From Methylobacter sp. (GTDB lineage Bacteria > Pseudomonadota > Gammaproteobacteria > Methylococcales > Methylomonadaceae): a stretch of 24,000 nucleotides of DNA. The stretch covers positions 14,721-38,720 of the forward strand of contig JAQUOU010000013.1 in NCBI GenBank assembly GCA_028716975.1, in the 5' to 3' direction. How positions within the stretch are numbered: position 1 is the stretch's first letter; each line of letters opens with the position of its first letter. This document shows positions 6,611 to 23,623 of this stretch, in pieces. The notes under the pieces are model-generated. The model was given only the letters and a program-made list of their open reading frames with translations, ran no database searches and was not told the origin of the DNA. The position numbers and the translations under genes were made by a program.

Positions 6611-8377
6611 CTAGGCGAAGAGTTGTTTAAATGACGCCTTGATAATAGCAGCCGAATCCGGATCGCCCTGCAAAATTGCCGAGGAATACGCTCTCACCTG
6701 ATCGAAGCTGATATGGGGCGGCAGCGGCGGCACATTAGGATCGGTATAGGCTTCAAGCACCATCGGCCGGTCGGCGCCAAGCGCTTGCTCCCAGGCATCA
6801 GCGAGCTGCTCCGGCCGATCAATGCAAAGGCCGCGCAAGCCGATCAGCTGCGCACAGCGTGCATAAGGGAAATCCGGTAAATCCTGCGAGGCTTCAAACT
6901 TCGGATCGCCTTCCATCGCCCGCTGCTCCCAGGTTACCTGATTCAGGTCGCGATTATTGAGAACCATAATGACCAGCCGCGGATCGCTCCAGCGCTGCCA
7001 GTATTTGCCGATGGTAATCAGCTCATTGATGCCGTTCATTTGCATGGCGCCATCGCCGACCAGCGCAATTACTACGCGGCCTGGATGCGCGAATTTTGCT
7101 GCAATCGCATAAGGCACGCCCGGCCCCATGGTGGCAAGTCCGCCGGACAACGAAGCCATCATGCCCGAGCGCATTTTCAGGTCGCGCGCATACCAGTTGG
7201 CTGACGAACCCGAATCGCAGGTGAGAATGCAGTTATCTGGCAGACGCGGGGACAGCTCCCAGAAGACGCGTTGCGGATTAATCGGATCAGCCGATTGCAT
7301 GGCCCGCGCCTCCAGGGTTTCCCACCAATGCGTGACTTGTTTTTCAATGCGCTCCTGCCAACTGCGGTCTTCTTTTTTTTGCAATAATGGAATAAGGGAT
7401 CTTAACGTTTGAACGCTGTCGCCGATCAGGTTCACTTCCATCGGATAGCGAATGCCGATCATGCGGCCGTTAATGTCGATTTGCACGCCTCGAGCCTGGC
7501 CTTCTTCGGGCAAAAATTCCGAATAAGGAAAACTGGAGCCGACCATCAACAAGGTATCGCAATCCATCATCATGTTATAGCTGGGCTTGGTACCCAACAG
7601 CCCTATTGAACCAGTCACATACGGAATATCATCGGGCACCGCGGCTTTACCCAGCAAGGCCTTGGCAATGCCGGCCCCCAGCAGCTCAGCCACTTCCAGT
7701 ATCTCGGCCGTGGCCTGCAGCGCCCCCGCGCCAACCAGCATGGCCACTTTGTCGCCTGCATTAAGCACGTCGGCGGCATGCTGTAAATCTTCGGCATGAG
7801 GCACGGTGCGCGGCGCCTGGTATCCTATCCCGGAATGGATGGTGCCATGCTCGTGAGGCGGCGTCTGGGCGTCCATTTCCTGAATATCGTTAGGAATGAT
7901 GATGCAGCAGACCGTACGTTCAGCTTGTGCGATGCGCATGGCGCGATCAATCAAATGACGCATTTGAGCCGGGGTTGACGCCATTTGCACATATTCATGG
8001 GCGACGTCTTTAAACAATGAAACAAGATCGACTTCCTGCTGATAATTGCCGCCCAGCGCAGCCCGCTTCTGTTGCCCGACGATTGCGACCACCGGTTGAT
8101 GGTCGAGTTTTGCATCATAAAGTCCATTCAATAAATGAATCGCGCCCGGGCCGGAAGTCGCCAGGCAAACACCGACTTCGCCGGTAAATTTGGCATGGGC
8201 GCAAGCCATAAAAGCCGCCATCTCTTCATGCCGCACCTGAATAAACTCGAGCTTGTACGGATCGCGGTTTAAGGCGCCCATAATGCCGTTAATGCCATCG
8301 CCCGGATAACCGAAAATGCGTTTTACCCCCCAGCCGGATAAACGCTCGACTAAAAAATCGCTGACGTTCTTCTTCAT
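6611..8377 (-). CDS. Thiamine-diphosphate-dependent enzyme, pyruvate oxidase / pyruvate:quinone oxidoreductase (PoxB)-like, 588 aa
   Basis: The N-terminus VKRIFGYPGDGINGIMGALNR...VRHEEMAAFMACAHAKFTGEVGVCLATSGPGAIHLLNGLYDA parallels E. coli PoxB from memory. The ThDP motif is GDGAMQMNGINELITIGKYW...VLNN. Substrate is not assignable from sequence. Confidence 0.85.
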   Translation of the reverse strand: MKKNVSDFLVERLSGWGVKRIFGYPGDGINGIMGALNRDPYKLEFIQVRHEEMAAFMACAHAKFTGEVGVCLATSGPGAIHLLNGLYDAKLDHQPVVAIVGQQKRAALGGNYQQEVDLVSLFKDVAHEYVQMASTPAQMRHLIDRAMRIAQAERTVCCIIIPNDIQEMDAQTPPHEHGTIHSGIGYQAPRTVPHAEDLQHAADVLNAGDKVAMLVGAGALQATAEILEVAELLGAGIAKALLGKAAVPDDIPYVTGSIGLLGTKPSYNMMMDCDTLLMVGSSFPYSEFLPEEGQARGVQIDINGRMIGIRYPMEVNLIGDSVQTLRSLIPLLQKKEDRSWQERIEKQVTHWWETLEARAMQSADPINPQRVFWELSPRLPDNCILTCDSGSSANWYARDLKMRSGMMASLSGGLATMGPGVPYAIAAKFAHPGRVVIALVGDGAMQMNGINELITIGKYWQRWSDPRLVIMVLNNRDLNQVTWEQRAMEGDPKFEASQDLPDFPYARCAQLIGLRGLCIDRPEQLADAWEQALGADRPMVLEAYTDPNVPPLPPHISFDQVRAYSSAILQGDPDSAAIIKASFKQLFA

Positions 8378-8562
8378 GGCAACTCCTTTATCTCAAGTTG
8401 GCAGCTTGAATGCCCGCAGGCGCAGGCATCACTGTTTGGCTGATTTTTACAGCTCAGGCTACAGTACTCATCGCCCGGTGATACTTTGCAGAGGCAACGC
8501 GGATGGGCGCAATAAGTTGCGTCGTCCTGATCCGACACGTTACCCGGTAGTGCTGCTGTCAT
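8374..8562 (-). CDS. Cys/His-rich 62-aa miniprotein, SmtA/BmtA-metallothionein-like or zinc-ribbon-like
   Basis: Has 8 Cys and 2 His in the pattern YCAHPRCLCKV...EYCSLSC...ACACGHSSC, which resembles SmtA (CACEPCLCNV...YYCSEAC...GCGHTGC). GGGAGA lies 5 nt upstream of the ATG at 8562. Its stop overlaps the start of the TPP enzyme (ATGA at 8374-8377). Confidence 0.55.
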   Translation of the reverse strand: MTAALPGNVSDQDDATYCAHPRCLCKVSPGDEYCSLSCKNQPNSDACACGHSSCQLEIKELP

Positions 8563-8932: not shown

Positions 8933-9043
8933 CCGTTCGAGCTGAGCCCTTCGGCGGTGCTCAGGAAAGCCTTGTCGAAGCCAGCTGGGGCCTTTCGATA
9001 GGGTTCTTCTGAGCATTGTCGAAGAGCTCAGGTTCTGCAAACG
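8933..9043. repeat. Family-A repeat cluster
   Basis: 8933-8982 (CCGTTCGAGCTGAGCCCTTCGGCGGTGCTCAGGAAAGCCTTGTCGAAGCC) matches 23522-23570 (CCGTTCGTGGTGAGCCCTTCGATAAACTCAGGAGAGCCTTGTCGAAGGA) at roughly 80% identity by eye. It is followed by the small hairpin CTGAGCattgtcgaagaGCTCAG. Confidence 0.55.
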
Positions 9044-9340
9044 GCGTCACCCCGGCATGGACTCACTCCGGGCTTTCCTGCCCGGAGCCCTTCGGGTAAA
9101 TGCAAATCTGTTCCAGACAGATTTGTGCCGGGGTCCAGGCTACAGGGAGGTAAACTTTGGTGGTTAATCACATCCTTGTGTTCTGGATTCATGCGGGGCT
9201 TTCCTGCCCCGCACCCCAATGGGGGTAAATGCCAATCCGCTCCTGGCGGATTGGTCCGGCACAAATTCGTCCGGAGCGAATTGGCATTTACCCGAAGGGC
9301 GTCAGGCAGGAGTGCCTGACGTGACTCCATGCCGGTATGA
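9044..9340. repeat. Family-B repeat, three copies of about 60-85 nt forming a MITE/BIME-like composite
   Basis: Copy B1 at 9052-9110 is CCGGCATGGACTCACTCCGGGCTTTCCTGCCCGGAGCCCTTCGGGTAAATGCAAATCTG. The reverse complement of 9277-9335 is CCGGCATGGAGTCACGTCAGGCACTCCTGCCTGACGCCCTTCGGGTAAATGCCAATTCG, so it is an inverted copy. Copy B2 at 9186-9262 is direct and carries GCGGGGCTTTCCTGCCCCGC...GGGGGTAAATGCCAATCCG. Each copy has internal hairpins. Confidence 0.6.
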
Positions 9341-9588
9341 CGGGCTTAAGAGTTTACTGCTTCCGCTGAAGCTTATACGTAATCAAGAAATTTTATAGAA
9401 TCGGATCAATAAGGGCTTCCTGGGGCAAAGCCAAGCTTAGTAAGAACAGCTTTCGCATCTGACGATTGCTGTTTTCAAGGAATTGCCATCACAGAGCAGG
9501 TCGTGAAGAAAGGTGAGTTTATGAAGTACTTGATTACGTCAGGCCTTTGTTAGTAGATAGGGCGATCAAGCTATAATGCGGAGTTGTT

Positions 9589-10545
9589 TTATTTTGCTAA
9601 TGCCCCGGAACAGCTGGAGCCTTGACCGGCAGTACAGCCGAAGCAATGATCGGCGACGGCTATGGTCATAGCTTCAGGCATTCCTTCCAGCAATTCACTC
9701 ATATGAGTAGCCCGGCCCGCAATCGGAATCCCCAGCATTTGATTGAAATCGCAATCATAGACGAAACCTTGCCAATCCACGCTCAACAGACTCAGGCACA
9801 TTACCCGCTCAATGTTGGCCGGCCGGTACGCCTGTTTCAGCAGATTCATATAGTCTTCGAGTTGGCCTTTCGCCAACAGCACGGCGCCGAAGCGTTGTAT
9901 CGGCATATTGGTAATGGTGAACAGATGATTAAACTGCACATTAAAATGTTCGCTTAAAAACTGCCGGTAGGCCGCTTCCAATGGCTCTTGCGGCGGCGGC
10001 AAAGCGAGTCCTTGCGGATTAAACACCAGATTAAGCGTTAAACTGCTATCAGGCCGGCCATAACCCAGGCTGTTAAGTTTTTGCAAAGCTTTAATGGAAG
10101 CGGTGAATACGCCTTTACCGCGTTGCGCATCGACGTTGTCTTCCAGATAACACGGCAGGGAAGCAATTACTTCTACTTGCTGTTCAGCCAAAAAACCGGC
10201 CGTGCTTTCAAAGCCCGGCTCAACTAAAATCGTGGGATTGCAACGATCCATGACATGCAGCCCTTGCGTTCTGGCCGTTTGCACCAGCCAGCGGAAACCC
10301 GGGTTCATTTCCGGCGAACCGCCGGTTAAATCCAATTGTTTCAGTTGATATTTACCGGCAAATTCCAGGGCGATTTCCATCGTTTCGCGTGTCATCAATT
10401 CAGTTCGCTTCGGGCCTGCATTGACATGGCAATGCAGGCAGCTCAAATTGCATAAGTAACCCAGGTTCATCTGCAATATCTTGAGTTGCCCGCGATGAAT
10501 TCCGGGAAAGCCGTGCTTAAACAGTAAAGGTTTGACGTCACGCAT
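9589..10545 (-). CDS. arsS: Radical SAM/Cys-rich-domain protein of the TIGR04167 type (arsenosugar biosynthesis ArsS-like)
   Basis: Has a CxxxCxxC radical-SAM motif in LGYLCNLSCLHCHVNAGP. The C-terminal Cys-rich tail is HCFGCTAGQGSSCSGALAK; this position is Sec in some family members and Cys here. It sits in the canonical context with TIGR04282-like and TIGR04283-like genes and arsM. Confidence 0.8.
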   Translation of the reverse strand: MRDVKPLLFKHGFPGIHRGQLKILQMNLGYLCNLSCLHCHVNAGPKRTELMTRETMEIALEFAGKYQLKQLDLTGGSPEMNPGFRWLVQTARTQGLHVMDRCNPTILVEPGFESTAGFLAEQQVEVIASLPCYLEDNVDAQRGKGVFTASIKALQKLNSLGYGRPDSSLTLNLVFNPQGLALPPPQEPLEAAYRQFLSEHFNVQFNHLFTITNMPIQRFGAVLLAKGQLEDYMNLLKQAYRPANIERVMCLSLLSVDWQGFVYDCDFNQMLGIPIAGRATHMSELLEGMPEAMTIAVADHCFGCTAGQGSSCSGALAK

Positions 10546-10614
10546 AATTAATATTTGTTAAGGTTCCCGCTAAACCCGGGATATATTGAATGAGAGACAC
10601 GATTTCTCTTTCCT

Positions 10615-11289
10615 TCATACAGGAACAGAATCCAGAAATCGGATCAATGCCTGTTGCTCCGGTAAAGGCTCTTTCAACTCCTGCAAGGTCTTACGCAATG
10701 CAATTAAATCGTCCGGCTCATCGACATCCCGTAATGTTAATAACAGGAGGACATTTCCCAATTGCTCGATTTTACTTAAGAATTGACTGCCGGTATCGGC
10801 GGTGCTGTAAGTCACCTGAGTCCAGAATTCGTCCGGCAAACTGCAATTGCCTCCGAACAGCCAAAAGCCGCCATCGAAACTGGGGCCGAACGCGAAACGC
10901 GCCGCTTCGTCATCAGCCAGCCAGTCGGAAGCGTTCAATAGTTGGGAGACCGTCATTTGCGGAATATCGGCGCCGGTTAAAAGGACAAAATCATGCCGCT
11001 CTAACAGCGTTCGATATACATGCGCCATACGCTCGCCCAAACCGCATTCACCTTGCCATAAACAGGGTAAATCCAGCCAAAAAGAGTGATTCAGTGCCTC
11101 CGTTTCAGCTACCGCATAGTAACCCTGAATATTACCGAGCTGTCCGGCGCAAGCTGCAACTGCGGCAACCGCTCGGGCAGATCTCAAATGAAAAGACTCG
11201 GCGAATTCGATGCCCAAATTAACGGCGAGACGTGTTTTCACCGGGGAGATTCCCGGCGTTTTAACAAATACTGCAATTGCTCCGCTCAT
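10615..11289 (-). CDS. DUF2064 / TIGR04282-like transferase (transferase 1, rSAM/selenodomain-associated; annotated in databases as an arsenosugar biosynthesis glycosyltransferase)
   Basis: The ORF-track start at 11343 would overlap the upstream gene by 58 nt. The internal ATG at 11289 forms an ATGA overlap with the upstream stop (11286-11289). It gives MSGAIAVFVKTPGISPVKTRLA, the typical DUF2064 N-terminus (FxKxPxxGxVKTRL). Confidence 0.7.
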   Translation of the reverse strand: MSGAIAVFVKTPGISPVKTRLAVNLGIEFAESFHLRSARAVAAVAACAGQLGNIQGYYAVAETEALNHSFWLDLPCLWQGECGLGERMAHVYRTLLERHDFVLLTGADIPQMTVSQLLNASDWLADDEAARFAFGPSFDGGFWLFGGNCSLPDEFWTQVTYSTADTGSQFLSKIEQLGNVLLLLTLRDVDEPDDLIALRKTLQELKEPLPEQQALIRFLDSVPV

Positions 11290-11972
11290 GAGCCTTGCGC
11301 TAAACGGCGTCTGGCTTGCCGGAATAAATACCAGGTCAGCCAAATATGCCGCAGCGTTGTGGCTAGCCAGCCTTGTTGCCGATAACGGCGGGCGCTGGTT
11401 ATCAAGTCCGCTTGCATTTCCTGTAAAGAGACGCCTGCGGCTTTCAGGCGCACTACAAAATCCAGGTCTTCGCCTAACAATAGGTTTTCATCGAAACCGT
11501 TCAATTGCTCGAATACGGTGTTATTGACGATAAAACCCTGATCTCCGAAAGGCAAACCAAAAAACCGGGAGCGTAAATTGGCCGCCCAGGCATTTAGACA
11601 GGTTTTTTTGGGGCCATCGGCGTCAAATCTTAAGCGAAAATAGCCCAGACACGTATTTCCTGCCTCGATATAGTTTTGCATTGCGGTCATGACCCCAGAC
11701 GTCAACCGGCTATCGGCATGCAGAAGCCAGATCATGCGATGCCTGGCATGCCGGACTCCGGCATTGAGCTGGCGCGCGCGTCCTTGCTTGAGATGCAGCC
11801 ACTCTGCATTCGCCGGCAATTCAATATCGGCTGGCGGCTGCTGCGAGGCAGCCAGGATGATTTCTATTTCCTGGCCGAATATCACTAATTGATTCAGTAA
11901 AAGACGCCAGCTCTGATCGTCCGGACCGATTGGAATAACGACGCTCAGATTGCTGAAAATCGTCTTAGTCAT
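11286..11972 (-). CDS. GT2-like TIGR04283-type transferase (transferase 2, rSAM/selenodomain-associated)
   Basis: Motifs recalled for this family are present: LSVVIPIG, GRARQLNAG, WLLHADS, FGDQGFIV, GEDLDFVVRL and TSARRYRQQGW. The start ATG overlaps the arsM stop by 1 nt (TAATG at 11970-11974). Confidence 0.7.
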   Translation of the reverse strand: MTKTIFSNLSVVIPIGPDDQSWRLLLNQLVIFGQEIEIILAASQQPPADIELPANAEWLHLKQGRARQLNAGVRHARHRMIWLLHADSRLTSGVMTAMQNYIEAGNTCLGYFRLRFDADGPKKTCLNAWAANLRSRFFGLPFGDQGFIVNNTVFEQLNGFDENLLLGEDLDFVVRLKAAGVSLQEMQADLITSARRYRQQGWLATTLRHIWLTWYLFRQARRRLAQGS

Positions 11973-13018
11973 TAACAGCAGGCCGCGCCTGAGTCAAGGG
12001 ACAAGCTTTTGTTGGGCGGGGCGCACTCAAATAAGCCAAAATGCGTGGATTTATTGCCCCATATTTCAAAATGTCCTGAATAGCGGCTGATACCGAGCAT
12101 GTCAGCGGTATTGCCGCAAACGCGCAAAGGCCGGCCGGTTTCAAAATGATGATGATCGTCCAGGTCGAAAAAGTGCGGGTGCTCAGGTAAAGTGCCTTTA
12201 TAGACAGCGACTTGCCCGAAATCCTCGCAACGGTCTTCCAGCGCTGCCTTGAAAGCTCTCACTGTTATTGAACGAAAATTTACCATGCCGATTTTCGCAG
12301 AGATTTCAAGATCATCGAGGGTGACCGGGTTATCATTGACGATACGAATATCGGGACAGCTCAAATCTTGCATAATCCGGCGAAAATCCTCCCAATATAA
12401 AGCGCCGCCCAGGCATTCGCCTAGTAAAACCGGATCCAGTTTAAGCGTCTGCGGTATGCGCCGGTCGGAATAGACATCGGAAAAATAAAGTTCGCCGCCG
12501 GGTTTGAGCACGCGAAAAATTTCCGCCAACACCTGCTTTTTATCGGGCGATAAATTGATAACGCAGTTCGATACCACAACGTCGATAGAATTGCCGGCAA
12601 TGCCGATCGAGGCGAGATCTTCAATTTGCCCCTGAAGGAATTCAACATTGGAGCGAGCGTAACCATAACGTTCCGCATGCCAATCGCAGTGACGTCTGGC
12701 GACAGCGAGCTGCTCTTCCGTCATATCGACGCCGATGACACGCCCCGCCTCACCGACTAAACGGGACAGCAGGTAGCAATCGCGTCCTGAACCGCACCCC
12801 AAGTCCAATACGGTACAATCTTCAAGCGCCGGCGGCAGCGGCGAACCGCATCCGTAAAAACGCGAGATAACTTCCGGGTGCAAATCGGCGAGAAACGGAC
12901 GCAAATGCTTAGGTATGGCGTCAAGCGTGCAGCAGGCGCCAGTTTTTAAATCCAGGCTGGATTTAAGCACTTGCCCGTAATAGTTCTGTACAGATTCACT
13001 GATGGCGGCGTCGATCAT
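11972..13018 (-). CDS. arsM: Arsenite S-adenosylmethionine methyltransferase, AS3MT/ArsM type
   Basis: Long colinear similarity to human AS3MT from memory: VQNYYGQVLK, RFYGCGSP, VLDLGCGSGRDCYLLSRLVGE.G.V.GVDMT, VVSNCVINLSPDKKQVL, LKPGGELYFSDVY, GECLGGALYWEDF. Cys pairs occur near both termini (GACC, GAACC). GGAG lies 5 nt upstream of the ATG at 13018. Confidence 0.85.
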   Translation of the reverse strand: MIDAAISESVQNYYGQVLKSSLDLKTGACCTLDAIPKHLRPFLADLHPEVISRFYGCGSPLPPALEDCTVLDLGCGSGRDCYLLSRLVGEAGRVIGVDMTEEQLAVARRHCDWHAERYGYARSNVEFLQGQIEDLASIGIAGNSIDVVVSNCVINLSPDKKQVLAEIFRVLKPGGELYFSDVYSDRRIPQTLKLDPVLLGECLGGALYWEDFRRIMQDLSCPDIRIVNDNPVTLDDLEISAKIGMVNFRSITVRAFKAALEDRCEDFGQVAVYKGTLPEHPHFFDLDDHHHFETGRPLRVCGNTADMLGISRYSGHFEIWGNKSTHFGLFECAPPNKSLSLDSGAACC

Positions 13019-13211
13019 GTAGGCTCCGGATATAAGCTAAGTTGTTTCTGCAAACGCGTAAGTAAATGGCGAATACTCTTACGTATTTTATTTTCTAAGT
13101 TGTTAAATCGTAAGGTTTCTTACAAGCAAGTGCAAAATATTTTTTTATATGCAGGGGTCATGACGAAAGGGAGGGATAAAACAGGCGCTATCCATATAAG
13201 GGAAACTCTAA

Positions 13212-13260
13212 AAATAAATACGTTCATGGTTCGACAGGCTCACCATGAACGTATTTATTT
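13212..13260 (-). terminator. Perfect 19-bp stem / 11-nt loop hairpin derived from the family-A repeat; putative intrinsic terminator between the polysaccharide locus and the arsM cassette
   Basis: The left arm AAATAAATACGTTCATGGT (13212-13230) pairs with ACCATGAACGTATTTATTT (13242-13260). The loop is TCGACAGGCTC. On the transcribed minus strand the 3' arm runs into TATTTATTTTTAG. It lies 182 nt downstream of the GT2 stop at 13442. Confidence 0.45.
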
Positions 13261-13441
13261 GATAAGAGTAGAACTGTTCGTGCTGAGCTCTTAGTCTGTG
13301 CCCACGAGAACCCTGTCGATACACGGTATTTTTAGAGGCAACCCTATATGCCAGGATTGATATTTGATGCACTGCCTCCAGCCGCCAAGGATAGTATCCA
13401 GGCAAAAACCAGACAGCCGCGCCTTTCTTTGCCGTAAAGTT

Positions 13442-14365
13442 TTACGGCAAAATGCGAAGCCAGTAAGTTTTATGCAGGCTAAAGCCTTTACGAATACCTT
13501 GCGGCAATTCCATATGCAGGGCGCCCAGCTTGAATCCCAGCCATTTCAGTCCTGTTCGCAGCACGGCGGAGGGAAGCAGCCAGGGCGCGCGTTTCATCAG
13601 ATAGCGCATTTCCGAGATCACGAAGCGCAAGCCTTCGCCGGACGCACCGCCAAATGTCTGTTGCAGCCAGGCGGTTTGGGTGTGGAACACGCCGATATCG
13701 AAATAACGCTTAAATTCGTCCAGGAAACTGTAGTCATGAGAGTGAAACACTTGGGCATCGGCGCAGTAAGCAATTTTCCAGCCGGATACCAGCATTTTTC
13801 CGGCCACATAAGTATCTTCATTCATAATGGTATCGGCGGGGAAGCCGCCTGCCTGCATCAGTATGTTTCGCCGGTAAGCGGCAAAAGAATTGGATATAAA
13901 TACCGACTTGATGCCAAACCTTGTTCGATCTTTCATGCAACGCAACTGACTTTCGGCCGGATAATTAAAAAGGCGGGCATGGGCGGCAATCGGTCCGGCA
14001 TTCGTATGCGGAAGCTGGCGTCCATAGGCTGCACCGACTCGTTCATCGTCGAACGCAATTAACAGCCGTTCGATGGCATCGGGACTGGCCAATAAAGCGT
14101 CCTGCGTCATGAATACGATAATATCCACCTCCGGCAGTCCATTCACGCCGGACTGACGCGTGCCGCCGTGATTAAACTCCGGCTTAGGAATTACTTGCAC
14201 CTCAAAGCCTTGAGCGCACGCCAAGGCGACGGTGTTATCGCTGGACGAAGAATCGATCACCAAAAGGCAATCCGGTTTCCGGGTTTGTTGTTCGAAGGCT
14301 TTGAGCCAGGATTCCCAGAGCCTGCCTGCGTTCAGCGTGGGTACGATAAGGCCGACCTTACTCAT
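13442..14365 (-). CDS. Glycosyltransferase family 2 (rhamnosyltransferase-like)
   Basis: Contains VGLIVPTLNAG, LLVIDSSSSDNT, FNHGGTRQ, MTQDA, GRQLP, NSFAAYRR...GGFP, NEDTYVAGKML and VFHSHDY. The start overlaps the upstream stop by 8 nt (ATGAGTAA). Confidence 0.8.
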   Translation of the reverse strand: MSKVGLIVPTLNAGRLWESWLKAFEQQTRKPDCLLVIDSSSSDNTVALACAQGFEVQVIPKPEFNHGGTRQSGVNGLPEVDIIVFMTQDALLASPDAIERLLIAFDDERVGAAYGRQLPHTNAGPIAAHARLFNYPAESQLRCMKDRTRFGIKSVFISNSFAAYRRNILMQAGGFPADTIMNEDTYVAGKMLVSGWKIAYCADAQVFHSHDYSFLDEFKRYFDIGVFHTQTAWLQQTFGGASGEGLRFVISEMRYLMKRAPWLLPSAVLRTGLKWLGFKLGALHMELPQGIRKGFSLHKTYWLRILP

Positions 14366-15560
14366 ATGAGGAACCCTCAGTTAATTGTTGAGGTACATTG
14401 CCTTGGTTCGATCGAGTCAATACCTGCCAGACCCGCTCCCCAAGTTTGATGGGATCGAGCTGTTGTTCAACATAGTGCCGGCCATTCCGCGACATCCGTT
14501 CCCACGCCAAGCCGTCAAGCGATTGTGCTTTGCGCAGCACGTCACAGACAGAAACCTCGTTTCTATCGAAAACGAAACCGGCCTCAAATGCTTCCAGGTG
14601 ATCCCATGCCAAGCCTCTGGCTACCAATACCGGACGTCCCGCGGCCATGGCCTCGGCCACCACATTGCCGAAGTTCTCGCGCATGCCGCCTGCCGCCTCC
14701 AACCCCGAAGGCAGCACCAGGAAATGGCTGGACGCCAACAAGCCCAAGACTTCCCCGTGCTCCATATAACCGCGATAACTGATGGCGCCCTGGGCGCGTT
14801 CGACCAGCGCCTGAAACTCTTCGAAATAGGCGCCATCCACGCTTCTACCGGCAATCACCAGACTATCTTCAGGGTTCCTGACTTTCAACCAGGCCCGGAT
14901 AAAAGCATTGATGCCTTTTTCCTGCTGAATATGCCCCAGAAAGCAGAGCTTCATGCCTGCTCCGGCAGGATATTCGGCTACTTTAATATCGCGGCTGTCG
15001 ATGCCATTGGGGACCAGAAGAATACGGGCGTCTTCGCCGAGCATGTTGCGTACGCCTTCGGCCTCGGTTTCGCTTGTGCAATGCACGGCGATAGCGCGGC
15101 GCAGGGTTGGCAAGGTCAGCCATTTATAGAACAGCCATTTATGAAGTTTCTGCCGCCGAATGAGATCAATATGCTCAGGCATCAATCCGCCATGCGCGGC
15201 CACCATAAACGGGCGGCGCAACAGGGAGCAAAAAACCGCCGCCAGCGTGGAAGGCCAGGTGGCTATGCCGTGGATATAAATTACCGGCGCCCGCAAGCAC
15301 AACTTAAACAGCTCAGGAATAGCATCCAGTCCAAAACCCCAGCGCCTGAATCCATAGCAATGATAGAGCCTGATATCCACCTGTTCGCCAAGCTGCACAT
15401 CCTCAGCGCGCAGTCTTCCGGCAGTAGACTCGTCGGAGGCGACCAGCGTCATCTTATGTCCACGCTCCGCCCATGCCTGGGTTAATACACCGGCTGTGAC
15501 GGATACCCCGCCGTAACCTTTGGCCGGCGGTATATGCGTGGTAACGATACCTGCATCCAT
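14358..15560 (-). CDS. Glycosyltransferase, GT-B fold (GT4-like)
   Basis: Has the EX7E-type C-terminal motif (SGLEAAGGMRENFGNVVAEAMAAGRPVLV). The ORF-track start at 15638 overlaps the upstream gene. The ATG at 15560 is preceded by AGGAGA 6 nt upstream and gives MDAGIVTTHIPPAKGYGGVS, a typical GT4 N-terminus. Confidence 0.8.
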   Translation of the reverse strand: MDAGIVTTHIPPAKGYGGVSVTAGVLTQAWAERGHKMTLVASDESTAGRLRAEDVQLGEQVDIRLYHCYGFRRWGFGLDAIPELFKLCLRAPVIYIHGIATWPSTLAAVFCSLLRRPFMVAAHGGLMPEHIDLIRRQKLHKWLFYKWLTLPTLRRAIAVHCTSETEAEGVRNMLGEDARILLVPNGIDSRDIKVAEYPAGAGMKLCFLGHIQQEKGINAFIRAWLKVRNPEDSLVIAGRSVDGAYFEEFQALVERAQGAISYRGYMEHGEVLGLLASSHFLVLPSGLEAAGGMRENFGNVVAEAMAAGRPVLVARGLAWDHLEAFEAGFVFDRNEVSVCDVLRKAQSLDGLAWERMSRNGRHYVEQQLDPIKLGERVWQVLTRSNQGNVPQQLTEGSSYE

Positions 15561-15627
15561 AACGTTTCTCCTGAAACTGTTTGCGAATAAATAAACCCAT
15601 TGCCAACTCGATTTTCGTACATCAAAC

Positions 15628-16482
15628 TCACCTTCCATAGGCCAGGAACCCGCGCCAAATGCCGACGAGATTATAAAAAGAATAAGTCAGCTTTTTCGGG
15701 TTTAATAAAATCACGGCAAGCATCATTTTAAGGATGGGCACCACAAACATCTTGCGAACGATGTAGTACAGAATGAATACATCCTGCTCATTGGTAAATT
15801 TCCTGATGTAAGCCCCGATTCCGGTGGAATACATCAGCATTCTTCCGGTTCCCAACTTGTAGTGATCTTTATCCGGGTGATAAATCTTTATTTCCGGAGT
15901 ATAGAATGCGGTACCTCCGGCGCGAAGCAAGCGATATAAAAGTTCAAATCCCTCTGCCCCTGAATATTTGGAGCCAATCCCGAAGTCGTGATCCAGGTGA
16001 AACTGCTCGCCGTCAATCCGGTTCCGATTAAAAAACTGCGTAAACTCTACGCCCATCATATTGAAACGTGAAAAATATTGCGCTCTGTGACTGTTAATGC
16101 CAATACTGAATCGATTCGATGAAAAATCGTACGAACCCGCTACCAGAATGGAAAGTTCTTTACGCTTTTCAAACTCAGCGATCACTTTTTCGAGGACTTC
16201 CTTTTCATAGACACAATCGTCATCAGGAAATGCAATGATTCTGCCTTGCGCAAAGCTTATGCCGTAATCTCTGGCCCGGGCGTTACCGGTAAAATTCACT
16301 TTTACATGCAGCACTTCAAAGCAGCTCATGAATGGCTTGACCATAGTGTCGATTTTACCGTCCTTGTTCTGGTCGATGATGACCAACTCAAAGTTTTTAT
16401 GGGTCTGGTTCAGTAGCGAATGCAAAAACTCCGCCACCTCAAGGTCTCTTCCCAGCGTTGCCAGAATCAGCGAAACTTTCAT
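15628..16482 (-). CDS. Glycosyltransferase family 2
   Basis: Contains KVSLILATLGR, ELVIIDQN and AFPDDDC (DxD). The track start at 16491 is a GTG overlapping the upstream stop (GTGA). The ATG at 16482 has AAGGTGA 5 nt upstream, and either start is possible. GC is markedly low, about 37-40% in the sampled lines. Confidence 0.8.
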   Translation of the reverse strand: MKVSLILATLGRDLEVAEFLHSLLNQTHKNFELVIIDQNKDGKIDTMVKPFMSCFEVLHVKVNFTGNARARDYGISFAQGRIIAFPDDDCVYEKEVLEKVIAEFEKRKELSILVAGSYDFSSNRFSIGINSHRAQYFSRFNMMGVEFTQFFNRNRIDGEQFHLDHDFGIGSKYSGAEGFELLYRLLRAGGTAFYTPEIKIYHPDKDHYKLGTGRMLMYSTGIGAYIRKFTNEQDVFILYYIVRKMFVVPILKMMLAVILLNPKKLTYSFYNLVGIWRGFLAYGR

Positions 16483-16487
16483 ATTAA

Positions 16488-17270
16488 TCACCTTGCCTGA
16501 ATGCCGGCCTTTGCCTGCAGATAGATGGCGGCCTCATACCAGGTAAACATCAATGCAAACTCCAGGCCTGCAAAGCCGTCCCTAAATCCGCTCCGAAGTA
16601 TGAAGTGGTATAAAAACCGGGCAAGAATCCTGAGCCAGGATCGCCCCCATAAGACGCTTAACCGTCCGCGCCTGGTCATTACCGCACCCGCAGTAGGCTG
16701 AAGCTGCACTTCTTGCGCGGCCTTATCGACATGCTTATGCATCCATTCGATGATCTCGCCATGATAAAAATAATGTTCATAGGGAATAGCGGAATACCCG
16801 ATCCGGCACGTATTCATGACGGCTTCGCCGTGCCCGGTGTGATTGCGGACAAAGCCGGCCGTTTCCCTGCGCACCAGTCTCGGGTGGTAAATAGGATAGC
16901 CGGGGGCGTGATTCAGGCGTTTGCCGCGAAGATAAAGTATCGACGGCACCATCACCACATCAATTGAATCGGACTCCGCCATTCCGGATTCAAACCAATC
17001 GTAAAACGTCTGCGGGTAGATTTCGTCGGCATCGACGAACAATATCCATGCCGTGCTTATATTGCATTGCCTGATGGCAAAGTTGCGCTGTTCGGCAAAG
17101 CCGGGCCACGGATTCGTATAAATTCCGCAGCCCCGGCTTTTGGCGATGGCAACCGTATCATCGGTGCTTCCCGAGTCTACAACAACGATGGGATAGCGTT
17201 CCGGAATAGCCGCCAGACAACGCGGCAGATTGGCTTCCTCGTTTTTAGTCAAAATAACGACAGTTAGCAT
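16488..17270 (-). CDS. Glycosyltransferase family 2 (WaaE/KdtX-like)
   Basis: Contains LTVVILTKNEEANLPRCL, VVVDSGSTDDT, FAEQRNFAI, FVDADE and a C-terminal RSGFRDGFAGLEFALM. Confidence 0.8.
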   Translation of the reverse strand: MLTVVILTKNEEANLPRCLAAIPERYPIVVVDSGSTDDTVAIAKSRGCGIYTNPWPGFAEQRNFAIRQCNISTAWILFVDADEIYPQTFYDWFESGMAESDSIDVVMVPSILYLRGKRLNHAPGYPIYHPRLVRRETAGFVRNHTGHGEAVMNTCRIGYSAIPYEHYFYHGEIIEWMHKHVDKAAQEVQLQPTAGAVMTRRGRLSVLWGRSWLRILARFLYHFILRSGFRDGFAGLEFALMFTWYEAAIYLQAKAGIQAR

Positions 17271-17279
17271 AGGGTTTGC

Positions 17280-18227
17280 TTAAAGCTTCTTGACAGCATA
17301 TAAATTGATGTAGATGCCGAGTCCGAAAAAATTCATCAACCCGCCAAACGGGGCTTGCGCGAGCTTTACCAGCGCATCAACAAAAGCAGCCGGCCTTCCT
17401 TTCATGCGCAGCCTTTTGGATAACGCATTGGATGGAATCCGGGTTATTTGCTCTACCTTAGCCACACTAAAACCATTTCGCTCCACCAAGGCTATTAATC
17501 CATTCCGGGTAAAGTAATTGACATGCTCAGGCACCCATAGACAGGCGTTATCCTTCGTGCCCAGCAGTTTGACTAAAAACGAATCATAATTAGGCACGGC
17601 GCAAGCCAAAACGCCACCCGGAGCCAAGAGCCCCGCCACCTTTTTTATAGCCTGATCCGGCTCAAGAAGATGCTCCAATACCTGCGACATCATCACCACT
17701 CCAAACTGCTCGGATGATTCATAATTTTCGAACATCATGGCAAGCGGATCCTCGCCATTCAAATTCCTGAACACTTCGTTTTCATATTCGCCCGGATTGA
17801 TGCTGACCGTCCGGTAGCCCAATTTTCTGAGCGCCTGCGTATAAAAGCCAAAGCCCGAACCAATATCAAGAGCCTTGCCAAAACCCGAAACATTAAACCA
17901 GTCGGCTTGATGACTCATCCGTTCCGCATCCATTTTGCAGTTGGGAAACTCCGTTTCCCGGATCAGCACGGCTTCCAATGTTATCGCTTGAGTCAGCGCC
18001 TGACCGGAGTATTGATAGATGGATTGCAGCCATTGTTCATGGGGAGGACGATTCAAAAAACCGGTACCGCAGCTATCGCAACGGTAAATATGGAATTCCT
18101 TAAAGTTCGCGCCTGCCGTATATTGAAAGTTTTTTTGGCGCCAATAACTTATTTTCCCGCTTCCACAAGCTACACATTTATGTAAAACATCGCCATATAT
18201 GCCTGAAGCCGTTGCCGCATAAGTCAT
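17280..18227 (-). CDS. Class I SAM-dependent methyltransferase with an N-terminal CxxC...CxxC zinc-ribbon-like element
   Basis: Contains CVACGSG...YRCDSCGTGF, then ALDIGSGFGFY (SAM motif I) and LAPGGVL. The track start at 18254 is a GTG. The ATG at 18227 has GGAGG 8 nt upstream. Confidence 0.8.
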   Translation of the reverse strand: MTYAATASGIYGDVLHKCVACGSGKISYWRQKNFQYTAGANFKEFHIYRCDSCGTGFLNRPPHEQWLQSIYQYSGQALTQAITLEAVLIRETEFPNCKMDAERMSHQADWFNVSGFGKALDIGSGFGFYTQALRKLGYRTVSINPGEYENEVFRNLNGEDPLAMMFENYESSEQFGVVMMSQVLEHLLEPDQAIKKVAGLLAPGGVLACAVPNYDSFLVKLLGTKDNACLWVPEHVNYFTRNGLIALVERNGFSVAKVEQITRIPSNALSKRLRMKGRPAAFVDALVKLAQAPFGGLMNFFGLGIYINLYAVKKL

Positions 18228-18322
18228 AGTATTACCCTCCGATGTGCTGTTCACAAAACAAGTAGATTTTAAAAAAAATTTTATTCACCGGAAACCCCGG
18301 GCTAAGTTCCTGGTCCTGTCTC

Positions 18323-18356
18323 TCCTGAGCGCAGTCGAAGGGCTCAGGACGAACGG
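18323..18356. repeat. Family-A repeat copy with an 8-bp hairpin (TCCTGAGC gcagtcgaagg GCTCAGGA, followed by CGAACGG)
   Basis: The stems are 18323-18330 and 18342-18349, followed by GAACGG as in the other copies. It lies in the 182-bp spacer between wzx and the methyltransferase gene. Confidence 0.5.
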
Positions 18357-18436
18357 AATTTGATAGGGCCATAACTGCGGTTTAGGATAAATGGAATCAA
18401 CCCATTCAGAAATTCCGTCAACGGTTAACAAAACCA

Positions 18437-19762
18437 TCAGGCCGTAGCCTTACAGTTTGAACCATCCTGTTCCGCCTGACCCATTGCCTCCTGCTGCCCG
18501 GAGCTGATCCGCCAAGGTTTGGCCAGCATCGTCAAAACCAGCGCCTCTACGCCGAAGTAGATGGGGTTGGCCATGGCAGCGCCCGGTAAGCCGAAATTTT
18601 TTACCATCAGCGGAATGCTGATCGCCGCCGTCATTACTCCGCATAAGCGCCCCGCCAATAACACCTGCGTCCGTTTATTTGCCAATAGCGGTTGAGCCAT
18701 GACCGTGCCCAAGGCATGCAATGCGCACCCGATGGCCATGGCCGGCATTAACTCAACTGCTGAATGATATGATTTTGCGAGCACCATCGATGCCACCCAA
18801 TCCCTGGTAATAAGCAATAACGACACGCCGATGAGTCCCACAGCAAAAACACAACTTATCCATATCCATAAAATCCTGAAGCCTTCGTTATTCCGGTTCA
18901 GGGAACATGACTGAAAATAAACCGGCTGAAATAGTCGCAGCAAAACCATTGCGCTGCGATTGAACGCCTCGTTGATTATCACGTAAGCAGCTACGTATAA
19001 ACCTACTTCCGCAGGCGTCATGAAATAGCCGATCACATAGCGGTCACCCAAGCCATTAACCCAAAATATTAATTCCATCGGAATTAGCGGCAAGGCATAG
19101 GCCCAGACATCACTCCTGAAATTACGGGTGATGCCGAGGCGCTTCATTTTATCGGCTTTCTCGCCCCGGACAAACGACCAAACCGTATTAGAAACCAGGC
19201 TTGCCGCGATGTAACCCAGCAACACCCACTCTGCCTTTTGGCCTGCGAACCCTACCAGCGAAATTGCCAATAACGGACGCAGAATGCTGTCGCTGGTCTG
19301 CCATAGGCTGGCGCCGAGCTGTTTACGTTCGCCGATCAGCAACTGTATGCCCAGCTCGCGGCGAACGGTTACTGCCAGCAGGATGCCTGTCAGCACAAAC
19401 GGCCAAATATCGGTATGCGTGATGTAGCCGTATACAGCCCCCGCCAGCACCAGCAGAATCATCGCTAGAGCGGTTGATCCAGCTGTCAGGCCGGCCACAA
19501 CTTTATATAAACCCGCACGTTCCTCTTCGTTTATGCATTCCGGCCCTATCCTCATTCCGGCGCATATAAAAGGATACGAAAAAACCGCCACGCCAAGCGC
19601 GACAAAACCATTCAACAAAGCCACCTGCCCGTATATATCGGGCGAGACCAGTTCGGTCAGGACGCGAGTGCCCGCCAGCAACGCAATGCCGGATGCCAGT
19701 TGTCCAAACAGCGCCCAAAATGCGTCGCTGAATAATCGTCTTTCTTTCAATAGTCCGGGCAT
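18437..19762 (-). CDS. wzx: Polysaccharide/oligosaccharide flippase (Wzx-like, MOP superfamily)
   Basis: A 441-aa protein that is hydrophobic throughout, with at least 10 predicted TM stretches by eye. It sits between Wzy-like and transferase genes in a Wza/Wzc locus. There is no enzymatic motif; the call rests on topology and context. Confidence 0.7.
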   Translation of the reverse strand: MPGLLKERRLFSDAFWALFGQLASGIALLAGTRVLTELVSPDIYGQVALLNGFVALGVAVFSYPFICAGMRIGPECINEEERAGLYKVVAGLTAGSTALAMILLVLAGAVYGYITHTDIWPFVLTGILLAVTVRRELGIQLLIGERKQLGASLWQTSDSILRPLLAISLVGFAGQKAEWVLLGYIAASLVSNTVWSFVRGEKADKMKRLGITRNFRSDVWAYALPLIPMELIFWVNGLGDRYVIGYFMTPAEVGLYVAAYVIINEAFNRSAMVLLRLFQPVYFQSCSLNRNNEGFRILWIWISCVFAVGLIGVSLLLITRDWVASMVLAKSYHSAVELMPAMAIGCALHALGTVMAQPLLANKRTQVLLAGRLCGVMTAAISIPLMVKNFGLPGAAMANPIYFGVEALVLTMLAKPWRISSGQQEAMGQAEQDGSNCKATA

Positions 19763-19780
19763 GGCGCTTATCTTTTAAAG

Positions 19781-21031
19781 TCAGGATGGGCGTCGGCAAT
19801 ACCAACCGGATACTTCCGAATTAGCCTGCAATGGGGATGAAACCGGCTTAAATCCGGTACCCAATACGGCTCCCCACAGGAACATCAGCATCGCGTTTTG
19901 CGGAAAATACTCCCACATATTGAAAGTCAGCCCGGCAACGAAGATAAACGTTATCACCAGTCCCTTGTTAGAGTGGACTGACATCCTTGTCGTTGTCCAT
20001 AAAAAGCATAGATATGCCAAAAGACCGATCAGGCCGTAACCGTTCAGCAAAAATAAATACAGGCTGTCGGAATCGAATTGCCCCTGAAAATGTTCCGCGC
20101 CATAGAGAATATTGATGGTATTGGAACTTAATCCCAGGCCCCAGCCGACCAGCAAGTCCGCAGGCTCATGGATTTGCTCGGAAAACACCTGTTGCCACAG
20201 GTCTATACGGCCGTCTTCGGTTGGGTTGGCGTCATCGCGACCGCTGAGCAAAGGGCTGGACGCCAGCAACAGCGCACCGACGGCAAGTATCGGCGCCGGC
20301 ATGACTAAAGCCCAGCGATCGCGCGGACGGAGCAGCGCGTAAACCTGGAAATACACCACCAGCAAAGAGCTGATGAACGCAGTTCGCGAACCGCTCAGCA
20401 AGGCCAATAATACGCTGACAGCTAACCACTTGCGCAGGCCCGGAACCAGCGAGAACAGTAAGGCGCAAGTCGCCATGGTGGCTCCAAACAGGTTGGGACT
20501 GACAAAAGTGCCGAACGGCCGCCCTCCGCCCAAGAATGACACCCCGAACAAGGGCGGCGCCCACACTGCCTGGGCTATTGCCAACACGGCCTGTAGAGCA
20601 ATGTAATAGCGCAGATAATGCGCGAACCGATAGATAACATAGCTACCTGCACCCAACCGGCTGGTCACGAAGCCGATCATTGCCAGCGGCAGGTATTCAA
20701 AAATGCGCAAGCCCGCCATCGGCACCACCAACGGCAAGTCCAGGTACAGCGCATAGCCAACCTCAAACAGCACATAACTAGCAATAACGCCTAAAAAAGC
20801 CAGCACCGCGCTGGACATTGTACCGCGCCGCAAGCGTGGTTCAAAAAAGGCGTAAGCTATCAGCACTATCAACATCGCCTCGCGAAGAATGCGTAAACCG
20901 AAATCCTGCTCGCCATACACCTCCTTAACCCCTGTCCAGGCTGACTCGACCTGTGGCAAAGAAGCCAGGGTCGACGCGCTGACCAGCGCGAACAGCAGAA
21001 CCGGCAAATCCTTTTCGAAGCGTAGTCTCAT
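19781..21031 (-). CDS. wzy: O-antigen ligase/polymerase family membrane protein (Wzy-like)
   Basis: A 416-aa polytopic membrane protein with the region LALLSGSRTAFISSLLVV typical of the Wzy_C/O-antigen-ligase domain. It starts 3 nt downstream of the wzc stop. Polymerase versus ligase cannot be decided from sequence. Confidence 0.65.
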   Translation of the reverse strand: MRLRFEKDLPVLLFALVSASTLASLPQVESAWTGVKEVYGEQDFGLRILREAMLIVLIAYAFFEPRLRRGTMSSAVLAFLGVIASYVLFEVGYALYLDLPLVVPMAGLRIFEYLPLAMIGFVTSRLGAGSYVIYRFAHYLRYYIALQAVLAIAQAVWAPPLFGVSFLGGGRPFGTFVSPNLFGATMATCALLFSLVPGLRKWLAVSVLLALLSGSRTAFISSLLVVYFQVYALLRPRDRWALVMPAPILAVGALLLASSPLLSGRDDANPTEDGRIDLWQQVFSEQIHEPADLLVGWGLGLSSNTINILYGAEHFQGQFDSDSLYLFLLNGYGLIGLLAYLCFLWTTTRMSVHSNKGLVITFIFVAGLTFNMWEYFPQNAMLMFLWGAVLGTGFKPVSSPLQANSEVSGWYCRRPS

Positions 21032-21034
21032 CGC

Positions 21035-23407: not shown

Positions 23408-23484
23408 AGTCTTTCATATCTCAATTGTTTGAAAAGAAAACCCAATTCCATGAGGAATCCCTGAGCAAGTTGATCCCGCTCATG

Positions 23485-23600
23485 CTTCGACAGGCTCACC
23501 ACGAACGGAATCGACAGTCTGCCGTTCGTGGTGAGCCCTTCGATAAACTCAGGAGAGCCTTGTCGAAGGAAGCTTGTCAAAGGAAGCCTGTCGAAGGACT
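23485..23600. repeat. Family-A repeat, most complete copy: core, 15-bp perfect hairpin, then three tandem inverted cores
   Basis: The core CTTCGACAGGCT is at 23485-23496. The stem GCTCACCACGAACGG (23494-23508) pairs with CCGTTCGTGGTGAGC (23522-23536). The tandem units are AGCCTTGTCGAAGGA (23556-23570), AGCTTGTCAAAGGA (23571-23584) and AGCCTGTCGAAGGA (23585-23598). The last unit is the exact reverse complement of the 23485-23496 core. Confidence 0.65.
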
Positions 23601-23623
23601 GTGCAGAGACTCCTCAAATACCA

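Follow-up and report, generated by a model that had tools for sequence, protein, structure and literature searches.

A divergent arsenosugar-type gene cassette in Methylobacter encodes ArsM, ArsS, a glycosyltransferase-like protein and a predicted nucleotidyltransferase

Results

A compact four-gene cassette

We analysed a 24,000-nucleotide (nt) stretch of a Methylobacter sp. contig, here called the window, and all coordinates count along the whole window, those of a first-pass annotation made from the sequence alone as well as ours. On its minus strand lie four intact open reading frames (ORFs) in the same orientation: arsM, a gene for a protein with the glycosyltransferase-A (GT-A) fold (hereafter GT), a DUF2064 gene and arsS, which codes for an enzyme of the radical S-adenosylmethionine (SAM) type (Table 1). 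Public databases already name this gene set, of which the cassette is a divergent version with a rearranged gene order. We think it fairly probable that the four genes are transcribed as one operon from a promoter of their own and that this operon takes arsenite to a 5-deoxy-5-dimethylarsinoyl-riboside, that is, an arsenosugar or arsenosugar lipid.

The arsM stop and the GT start overlap by 1 nt (TAATG at 11974-11970), the GT stop and the DUF2064 start by 4 nt (ATGA at 11289-11286), and DUF2064 and arsS are spaced by 69 bp (10546-10614). The ORF list reproduces the coordinates and junctions given in the first-pass annotation, which had described the four genes (ArsM, TIGR04283-like, TIGR04282-like and ArsS) as an arsenosugar-type cassette and, from their close packing, as very likely one transcript, and the gene identities agree as well. 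The DUF2064 ORF extends to an alternative TTG start at 11343 (10615..11343); all close homologues start at the ATG at 11289, as does the gene called on a 4.4-kb metagenome contig of identical sequence.

No Pfam family of ArsR, ArsB, Acr3, ArsC or ArsH was found in any scanned ORF of the window, as had been claimed before, and a canonical ars resistance operon with regulator, efflux pump and reductase beside arsM is not present in these 24 kb. The scanned ORFs also contain no metallophosphoesterase family. This matches the earlier remark that the phosphoesterase sometimes belonging to this signature is missing here; such a gene precedes ArsS in a Bacteriovorax locus.

Table 1 Features of the cassette and its flanks, and related promoter-like sites (coordinates in the window unless a locus is named)
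Feature	Coordinates	Strand	Size or remark
arsM, As(III) S-adenosylmethionine methyltransferase, AS3MT/algal-ArsM type	11972..13018	-	348 aa
GT-A fold glycosyltransferase-like protein, divergent TIGR04283 member	11286..11972	-	228 aa
DUF2064 protein, divergent TIGR04282 member, predicted nucleotidyltransferase	10615..11289	-	224 aa from ATG
arsS, radical-SAM enzyme, TIGR04167 family	9589..10545	-	318 aa
Promoter-like motif TGTAAG-N16-CAAC	13099..13124	-	starts about 105 nt upstream of arsM ATG
Terminator-like/REP-like hairpin, 19-bp perfect stem then UUUUU	13215..13262	-	RNA fold
Weak terminator-like site	9414..9432	-	~160 nt past arsS stop; consensus scan only
TGTAAG-N16-CGAC sites, locus L087	4358-4383, 8723-8748
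TGTAAG-N16-CGAC sites, locus L006	4829-4854, 7462-7487
TGTAAG-N16-CGAC sites, locus L089	1031-1056, 3039-3064, 3865-3890, 5274-5299

The two outer genes encode ArsM and ArsS

When ArsM was compared with the PDB by phmmer, residues 5-337 aligned with solved arsenite methyltransferases, namely 5evj (E 2.9e-110, 372 bits, nearly full length) and 4fr0/4kw7 (E 1e-93). Each of the four catalytic cysteines conserved in the solved enzymes 4kw7 and 5evj (C44, C72, C174 and C224 in CmArsM numbering) has its counterpart in the alignment, namely Cys29, Cys57, Cys152 and Cys202 of the window's protein. The protein also carries the SAM motif VLDLGCGSGRD and matches Pfam Methyltransf_31 at 1.4e-35. 5evj and 4fr0 are presumably the Chlamydomonas and Cyanidioschyzon enzymes, which would fit the label 'AS3MT-type' used earlier for this ORF.

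ArsM is under every NCBIfam ArsM cutoff: 186 vs 263 bits for PRK11873, 114 vs 400 bits for NF038099 ('arsenosugar biosynthesis ArsM', cyanobacterial-type) and 168 vs 500 bits for the arsinothricin ArsM model (methyl_ArsM). It belongs to another ArsM clade than NF038099. The best homologues of both ArsM and ArsS come from Methylococcales, including Methylobacter, Methylomarinum, Methylomicrobium, Methyloprofundus and a Bathymodiolus methanotrophic symbiont.

ArsS scores 443.2 bits against TIGR04167 (cutoff 300), covering profile positions 2-303 of 303. It contains the motif CNLSCLHC, a CX3CX2C at C32/C36/C39, and has CFGCTAGQGSSC at its C terminus. Both Radical_SAM and DUF3641 of Pfam match, the Cys-rich C-terminal DUF3641 at 3.3e-55, and C250, C265, C301 and C304, which are invariant among 45 diverse members, are all present. 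With this score and these motifs, the reading of the last ORF as a radical-SAM ArsS with a Cys-rich tail stands. An NCBI protein (P0121) from a Methylobacter sp. metagenome-assembled genome (MAG) shares 100% identity with ArsS and already bears the name 'arsenosugar biosynthesis radical SAM protein ArsS'. The ArsS family comprises 604 representative clusters at E<1e-30, and at least 596 matching stretches were confirmed in species-representative genomes. In two sources (10.64898/2026.04.29.721666; PMC12159101, citing Cheng et al. 2021), ArsS converts a methylated arsenical and SAM to DDMAA (5'-deoxy-5'-dimethylarsinoyl-adenosine), and this activity is given for the Synechocystis enzyme only.

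Natural fusions of ArsS with ArsM occur in both orders (P0262, P0275, P0308, P0314, P0320 and P0373), and an arsM-arsS pair is found in L087 and L089, the two loci on long contigs whose ArsS is closest to the window's. The coupling of ArsM with ArsS is backed by these fusions and pairs. No fusion of ArsS to GT or DUF2064 was found among the long ArsS representatives tested. Incidentally, there is one Flavin_Reduct-ArsS fusion among P0256 and the ArsM-fusion proteins, several other long ArsS proteins have N-terminal extensions of 130-430 aa without a family match, and locus L059 has a possible ArsS+VTT+Pyr_redox ORF, which may be an assembly artefact.

The two middle proteins are a GT-A protein and a predicted nucleotidyltransferase

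Each of the middle proteins has essentially a sole NCBIfam match. GT scores 182.0 bits against TIGR04283, equal at printed precision to the cutoff of 182, and DUF2064 scores 124.2 bits against TIGR04282, below the cutoff of 134. The Dokdonella orthologues score 157.5 and 126.8 bits, respectively, and mainstream members 277-283 and 179-209 bits. In GT, H85, D87, G143-D144-Q145, E168-D169, S193 and R195, which are invariant across 33 sequences, are kept. DUF2064 likewise keeps the family-invariant K18/R20 (KTRL), D108, D139-G140-G141 and D188/D190/D194. Because the Dokdonella orthologues also score low and the invariant residues are kept, the sub-cutoff TIGR04282 score reflects a divergent subclade, not misassignment. 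Among the three family assignments proposed at first, only that of ArsS is thus above its profile cutoff, with TIGR04283 on the cutoff and TIGR04282 below it.

GT lacks the VVDGGSxDxT nucleotide-binding motif of mainstream members and has ILAASQQPPAD in its place. The motif is missing, too, from the orthologues in Methylomarinum (L003), another Methylococcales MAG (L006) and Dokdonella (L018). The AlphaFold2 model of GT, with a predicted local distance difference test score (pLDDT) of 95.6, has a generic GT-A fold, and its nearest structures are GDP-fucose fucosyltransferase, chondroitin polymerase and ppGalNAc-transferases, at template modelling (TM) scores of about 0.6. The GT profile matches GT2 enzymes, including polyprenyl-phosphate glycosyltransferases and glucosyl-3-phosphoglycerate synthases.

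The DUF2064 protein matches its Pfam family at 1.8e-15. The family profile finds 3CGX, a structural-genomics entry, at 5.7e-47, followed by FbiD, 3-phospho-D-glycerate guanylyltransferase and CofC. The AlphaFold2 model (pLDDT 97.1) resembles 3CGX at TM 0.85 and CofC/FbiD/7P97 at TM 0.67-0.69, and the next fold neighbours are KdsB, IspD, CMP-sugar synthetases and GlmU. Because every characterised structural neighbour of the model is a nucleotidyltransferase, the DUF2064 'glycosyltransferase' looks like a nucleotidyltransferase that would activate a phosphorylated substrate.

NCBIfam names both TIGR04282 and TIGR04283 'arsenosugar biosynthesis glycosyltransferase', and genome papers repeat these names. 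No biochemical work on proteins of either family was found in searchable literature, in line with the earlier remark that their reactions had not been demonstrated. The first-pass annotation had spoken of two uncharacterised transferases. A GT-A fold bears this out for the TIGR04283-like protein, whereas DUF2064 is nucleotidyltransferase-like, not glycosyltransferase-like, by profile and fold.

Distribution of the gene set and pairing of the middle genes

Neighbour families within 7 kb of ArsS were analysed in 82 ArsS loci, and about 90 related loci were examined overall. GT is near ArsS in 46 of the 82 loci and DUF2064 in 44, far above any other family. The other neighbours include a fusion of VTT/DedA with a pyridine-nucleotide-disulfide oxidoreductase (22), ArsM (20), DUF547 (8), an ECF (extracytoplasmic function) sigma factor (7) and DUF3047 (6). 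Immediately upstream of arsS, a fatty-acid-hydroxylase-family gene occurs in 8 loci and a PNP_UDP_1 phosphorylase gene in 4. On a Burkholderia thailandensis plasmid, an annotated methylthioadenosine (MTA) phosphorylase is encoded ~7 kb from arsS; a second radical-SAM gene is also found near arsS on this plasmid.

The commonest arrangement in the 82 loci is arsS-GT-DUF2064, at times with another ArsM clade directly after arsS. The window's order, arsM-GT-DUF2064-arsS, recurs in L003, L006, a Pseudomonadota MAG (L013), L018 and Lysobacterales (L023), and L027, a partial Lysobacterales contig, fits it as well. Methyloprofundus has DUF2064-arsS. The subclade to which the window's GT and DUF2064 belong is found in Methylococcales and Lysobacterales-type genomes, and its relatives in many other bacteria are single, fused proteins.

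When the two window proteins were concatenated as a query, about 95 clusters of natural GT::DUF2064 fusions were found, in the same order as in the window. They come from Lysobacterales, Rhodanobacteraceae, Planctomycetota, Deltaproteobacteria and Bdellovibrionota, are 420-560 aa long (P0393-P0481; L031 1520-2860; L091 8001-9449; L093 8001-9344), and are publicly annotated merely as 'DUF2064 domain-containing protein'. One locus of the genome sample encodes such a fusion. Because the natural fusions share window-type sequence features, GT and DUF2064 proteins almost certainly work together. A Bacteriovorax locus has a minimal Metallophos-ArsS-fusion operon, with GT::DUF2064 directly after ArsS; a phosphoesterase is not among the recurrent families of the 82 sampled proteobacterial loci and was found only in this locus.

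Membrane- or lipid-related neighbours elsewhere (VTT/DedA, FA_hydroxylase and LPG_synthase_TM) favour, in a general way, a lipid-linked end product. None of the three is in the window. Recurrent ArsS neighbours of uncharacterised role were seen at L018 3707-5848 and 9127-10008, L087 4655-7591, L091 3484-6890 and in L094. The VTT/DedA domain is fused to a mercuric-reductase-like flavoprotein, other recurrent neighbours are DUF547, MgtC and DUF3047, and in some loci a fatty-acid-hydroxylase-family protein is wedged between DUF2064 and arsS.

The spacer upstream of arsM and the polysaccharide locus

Upstream of arsM, a 423-bp spacer is followed by a co-oriented polysaccharide locus (13442-23998), whose genes encode GT2, GT4, GT2, GT2, a methyltransferase, a 441-aa protein, Wzy_C, Wzc and the end of Wza. 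The locus had been described as a Wzx/Wzy glycan locus. The spacing, the orientation and Wzy_C, Wza and Wzc hold, but no Wzx-type family was detected in it by Pfam. The 441-aa ORF (18437-19762), between the methyltransferase and Wzy_C genes, has no Pfam match and may be a candidate flippase corresponding to that Wzx.

Between the last gene of this locus and arsM, the spacer contains a terminator-like hairpin (Table 1) with a folding energy of -29 kcal/mol (z -6.95), which none of 200 shuffles reached. The consensus terminator scan overlooked it owing to its 11-nt loop, and it was folded directly. That scan gave 3 terminator-like sites in the region vs 7.0 expected from shuffles, showing no excess, and consensus matches to sigma-70 promoters and terminators were no richer than in shuffles.

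Nearer to arsM is a promoter-like motif, TGTAAG-N16-CAAC, of which the window holds one exact copy. In an alignment of 7 Methylococcales loci, TGTAAG and a downstream CRAC are invariant upstream of arsM, and TGTAAG-N16-CRAC is kept before lone arsM genes, before arsM-arsS pairs and before arsM at the head of the four-gene cassette. In related loci, the same motif with the exact 16-nt spacing precedes VTT-Pyr_redox-DUF547, DUF547, MgtC and aldehyde dehydrogenase-DUF3179-EamA genes (sites with CGAC are listed in Table 1). An ECF sigma factor and a zf-HC2 anti-sigma factor are encoded immediately upstream of arsM in L087 and L089, and such a pair is also near arsS on the Burkholderia plasmid.

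These observations suggest that the motif-bearing genes form a regulon, possibly under the ECF sigma/zf-HC2 pair, and TGTAAG-N16-CAAC would be an ECF-type promoter. Because both the hairpin and the conserved upstream motif lie in the spacer, the cassette appears to be a transcription unit of its own. The motif and the neighbours in relatives have a stress-regulon flavour, which is compatible with biosynthesis and detoxification alike.

The first-pass annotation had raised the possibility that the arsenic-containing sugar ends up on a glycoconjugate via the polysaccharide locus. In this extension, the sugar would be passed to Wzx/Wzy-type machinery and built into exopolysaccharide (EPS) or a glycoconjugate, as the position of the cassette, 423 bp downstream of a Wza/Wzc/Wzy_C/GT locus in the same orientation, could suggest. 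However, no EPS/Wzy neighbourhood was found in any of the roughly 90 related loci, including L003, L006, L013, L018, L023, L087 and L089. The loci with the same gene order and the closest long-contig relatives have wholly different neighbours, and no EPS-type family recurs near ArsS in the 82 loci. Moreover, the terminator-like hairpin and the conserved arsM-specific motif intervene within the 423 bp. The adjacency is incidental, and we regard the extension as very improbable.

The spacer hairpin also belongs to a family of repeats resembling repetitive extragenic palindromic (REP) elements, with further copies at 1368, 8933, 18320 and 23477. The repeat (1368-1393, 8933-8969, 13221-13251, 18320-18358 and 23477-23543) has the core TTCGACAGGCTCA..ACGAACGG, is often palindromic and occupies most intergenic regions of the window, where it gives rise to spurious small ORFs with peptide strings such as 'RQAHHER' and 'LSKHER'.

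Other features of the window

Roughly 240 nt downstream of arsS, about 310 nt (9035-9350) can fold into one very long imperfect hairpin with 87-nt arms, 79% complementary, and inner hairpins (-189 kcal/mol, z -15). It has no Rfam match, no further copy in the fetched loci and 0 exact 21-mer matches in metagenome contigs. Candidate readings are a miniature inverted-repeat transposable element, a large REP element and a structured RNA; the first was tried and set aside, as no other copies were found in the fetched loci or by the exact 21-mer scan of the metagenome contigs. Rfam at gathering thresholds gave 0 matches to known RNAs in the 24 kb.

At 8374-8562 on the minus strand is a Cys/His-rich ORF of 62 aa (MTAALPGNVSDQDDATYCAHPRCLCKVSPGDEYCSLSCKNQPNSDACACGHSSCQLEIKELP), the stop of which overlaps (ATGA) the start of a gene for a thiamine pyrophosphate-dependent enzyme. 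By eye it is like a bacterial SmtA/BmtA-type metallothionein; it has no Pfam match. A GH39 glycoside hydrolase gene on the minus strand runs off the left edge of the window in the 1-1318 region, and beside it is a gene of the Anabaena-sensory-rhodopsin-transducer (ASRT) family (923-1318), an unusual family for a methanotroph.

The antisense ORFs at 10590-11222 and 13364-14062 are without family matches and were taken as spurious. In three related loci arsS is followed by a gene for a 177-aa membrane protein; a tblastn search of the window for a remnant of it gave no match. Composition was considered as a sign of horizontal acquisition; the GC content of the cassette (0.49-0.52) is not distinct from that of the adjacent EPS locus and is hence uninformative.

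Discussion

A proposed pathway from arsenite to an arseno-riboside

In the pathway that we propose, ArsM would methylate As(III) twice with SAM to yield dimethylarsenite, as suggested by its homology to characterised enzymes, and ArsS, by equivalog-level homology to the Synechocystis enzyme, would then form DDMAA. Adenine would next be taken off phosphorolytically by an enzyme from outside the cassette, leaving the alpha-ribose-1-phosphate form. The enzyme would probably be a housekeeping MTA phosphorylase or nucleosidase, DDMAA being an MTA analogue. Phosphorolytic removal is proposed because of this resemblance and the PNP_UDP_1 and MTA phosphorylase genes near arsS.

From its fold, DUF2064 could act fourth, as a nucleotidyltransferase converting a phosphorylated intermediate, most simply arseno-ribose-1-phosphate, to its nucleoside diphosphate (NDP) derivative. 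The GT-A protein could finally act as an inverting GT2-like enzyme, with a glycerol-type or lipid molecule as the acceptor of the arseno-ribosyl group. With an alpha-linked donor, inversion would yield the beta-riboside of natural arsenosugars. The proposed stereochemistry is consistent: nucleoside phosphorylases leave ribose-1-phosphate in the alpha form, GT2 enzymes work by inversion, and the arsenosugars found in nature are beta-ribosides.

Observations against the pathway, and alternatives

Several observations weigh against this pathway. Some of them concern the chemistry of its later steps. The cassette contains no phosphorylase or nucleosidase gene. Because GT lacks the canonical DGGSxD nucleotide-binding motif, its donor may be something other than a standard NDP-sugar. 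The substrates that CofC-type enzymes activate are phospho-acids and not sugar phosphates, and by analogy DUF2064 might activate the aglycone instead. As for the family assignments, the TIGR04282 score is 10 bits short of the curated cutoff, and the TIGR04283 score equals its cutoff exactly. Furthermore, no paper linking arsenosugars to methanotrophs was found in searchable literature.

The chemical points could also be accommodated if the pair acted on DDMAA directly. GT-A would use the nucleoside as its ribosyl donor, with adenine as the leaving group, and DUF2064 would bind the acceptor or, in a CofC/FbiD-like manner, activate it as an NDP derivative; glycerol-3-phosphate and 3-phosphoglycerate are examples of such an acceptor. 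A window-type GT without the motif that binds the NDP of standard donors would suit such a reaction, and no phosphorylase would be needed from the cassette. The nearest characterised relatives of DUF2064 activate 2-phospholactate, phosphoenolpyruvate or 3-phosphoglycerate, glucosyl-3-phosphoglycerate synthases are among the GT profile matches, and the metallophosphoesterase that accompanies the set in some genomes fits removal of phosphate from a phospho-aglycone product. On the other hand, we know of no GT-A enzyme that uses a nucleoside N-glycoside as donor, PNP_UDP_1 or MTA phosphorylase genes recur near arsS, and GT keeps the HAD/ED metal-binding residues typical of NDP-sugar use. We consider direct use of DDMAA quite unlikely and prefer phosphorolysis followed by nucleotide activation.

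The remaining points against the pathway come from the distribution of the genes. Methylobacter sp. sgz302048 has arsM alone, and two MAGs have arsM-DUF2064-arsS without GT. Because close relatives have arsM alone, arsM-arsS or arsM-DUF2064-arsS, the middle genes are dispensable modules and could serve another step. ArsS is without the GT/DUF2064 pair inside 7 kb in about 45% of the sampled loci. In a Lysobacterales MAG (L091 6942-10261), ArsM, a GT::DUF2064 fusion and FA_hydroxylase are encoded one after the other with no ArsS in the next 2.4 kb; either the pair may be used independently of ArsS there, or the locus may have been rearranged.

The arsM-arsS relatives, the ArsS loci without the pair and the Lysobacterales MAG would fit an arsenic unit of ArsM and ArsS only, making methylarsenicals, DDMAA or a hydrolysis product, with GT-A and DUF2064 modifying a non-arsenic membrane or envelope molecule within a shared stress regulon. 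Such a division of labour would also agree with the membrane- or lipid-related character of the recurrent neighbours (VTT/DedA-Pyr_redox, FA_hydroxylase, DUF547, MgtC and LPG_synthase_TM) and with the common promoter-like motif before several of their genes. It is countered by the pairing itself. The window has both genes of the pair between arsM and arsS, with stop and start codons that overlap. It is beside arsS in more than half of the 82 loci and in many orders, no other family being as frequent, and it is directly behind ArsS in the minimal Metallophos-ArsS-fusion operon. We therefore hold a two-gene arsenic unit to be unlikely, and keep to a four-gene operon in which the pair would complete the arseno-riboside.

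Significance

The surprise is limited because the gene set has already been recognised and named in public annotation. The new points of most use are that DUF2064 reads as a nucleotidyltransferase, that GT::DUF2064 fusions are abundant and that arsM has a conserved promoter-like motif. The steps from dimethylarsinoyl-adenosine to arsenosugars and arsenolipids lack assigned enzymes, and the compact cassette is a test bed for them. It has four genes only, with two unassigned ones between two characterised, which is convenient for heterologous reconstitution. The DUF2064 fold and its widespread fusion to a GT-A protein make 'activate, then transfer' a testable hypothesis.

A wider and more tentative proposal is that Methylococcales methanotrophs make arsenosugars or arsenosugar phospholipids via a divergent operon, probably ECF-controlled, in which DUF2064 forms a nucleotide-activated arseno-ribose as donor for the GT2-like enzyme. 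Taken as a whole, this seems rather doubtful to us. If true, nucleotide-activated arseno-ribose would be a type of metabolite not known to have been described, and it would fill the steps after dimethylarsinoyl-adenosine. To our knowledge, algae and cyanobacteria are the organisms with which arsenosugars and arsenosugar phospholipids have been linked so far. Sediments, paddy soils and lakes are habitats in which the cycles of arsenic and methane come together, and were methanotrophs to produce such compounds, organoarsenical production would reach the methane-oxidising communities there.

Comparison with known systems

The arsenosugar pathway of Synechocystis sp. PCC 6803 was reportedly described by Xue et al. 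in 2019, with SsArsM and SsArsS as its enzymes. The order of SAM-dependent As(III) dimethylation and radical-SAM 5'-deoxyadenosylation to DDMAA would be the same in the cassette, and the window's ArsS passes the equivalog model of that enzyme family. Unlike Synechocystis, the host of the cassette is an aerobic methanotroph, not a phototroph. Its ArsM is of another clade (NF038099 114 vs 400; closest solved 5evj), and two transferase-like genes lie between arsM and arsS.

With the mainstream TIGR04167/TIGR04283/TIGR04282 cassette of Beta- and Gammaproteobacteria (arsS-GT-DUF2064), the window shares the three families and their conserved invariant residues. However, its order is reversed, with arsM first and arsS last, its GT and DUF2064 share only 24-34% identity with mainstream members, and its GT lacks the DGGSxD motif. 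The window's pair is the unfused counterpart of the large GT::DUF2064 fusion set.

CofC, FbiD and 3-phospho-D-glycerate guanylyltransferase of the F420 pathway (PDB 2I5E, 6BWG/6BWH and 7P97) resemble DUF2064 in fold (TM 0.67-0.69) and in an N-terminal K-T/S-R-L phosphate-binding motif. By analogy, this likeness suggests a reaction in which a nucleoside triphosphate and a phosphorylated substrate give the NMP-P-substrate and pyrophosphate. DUF2064 is not a member of these families, as sequence kinship is at the profile level only (E about 6e-5), and no F420 genes are near the window's DUF2064.

The arsinothricin cluster arsQML of Burkholderia gladioli (PMC8552651) likewise combines a radical-SAM enzyme forming a C-As bond with an ArsM-type methyltransferase. 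There, ArsL transfers a 3-amino-3-carboxypropyl group, not 5'-deoxyadenosyl. The window has no ArsL or ArsQ, its methyltransferase reaches 168 vs 500 bits on the arsinothricin ArsM model, and its radical-SAM enzyme is of the ArsS family.

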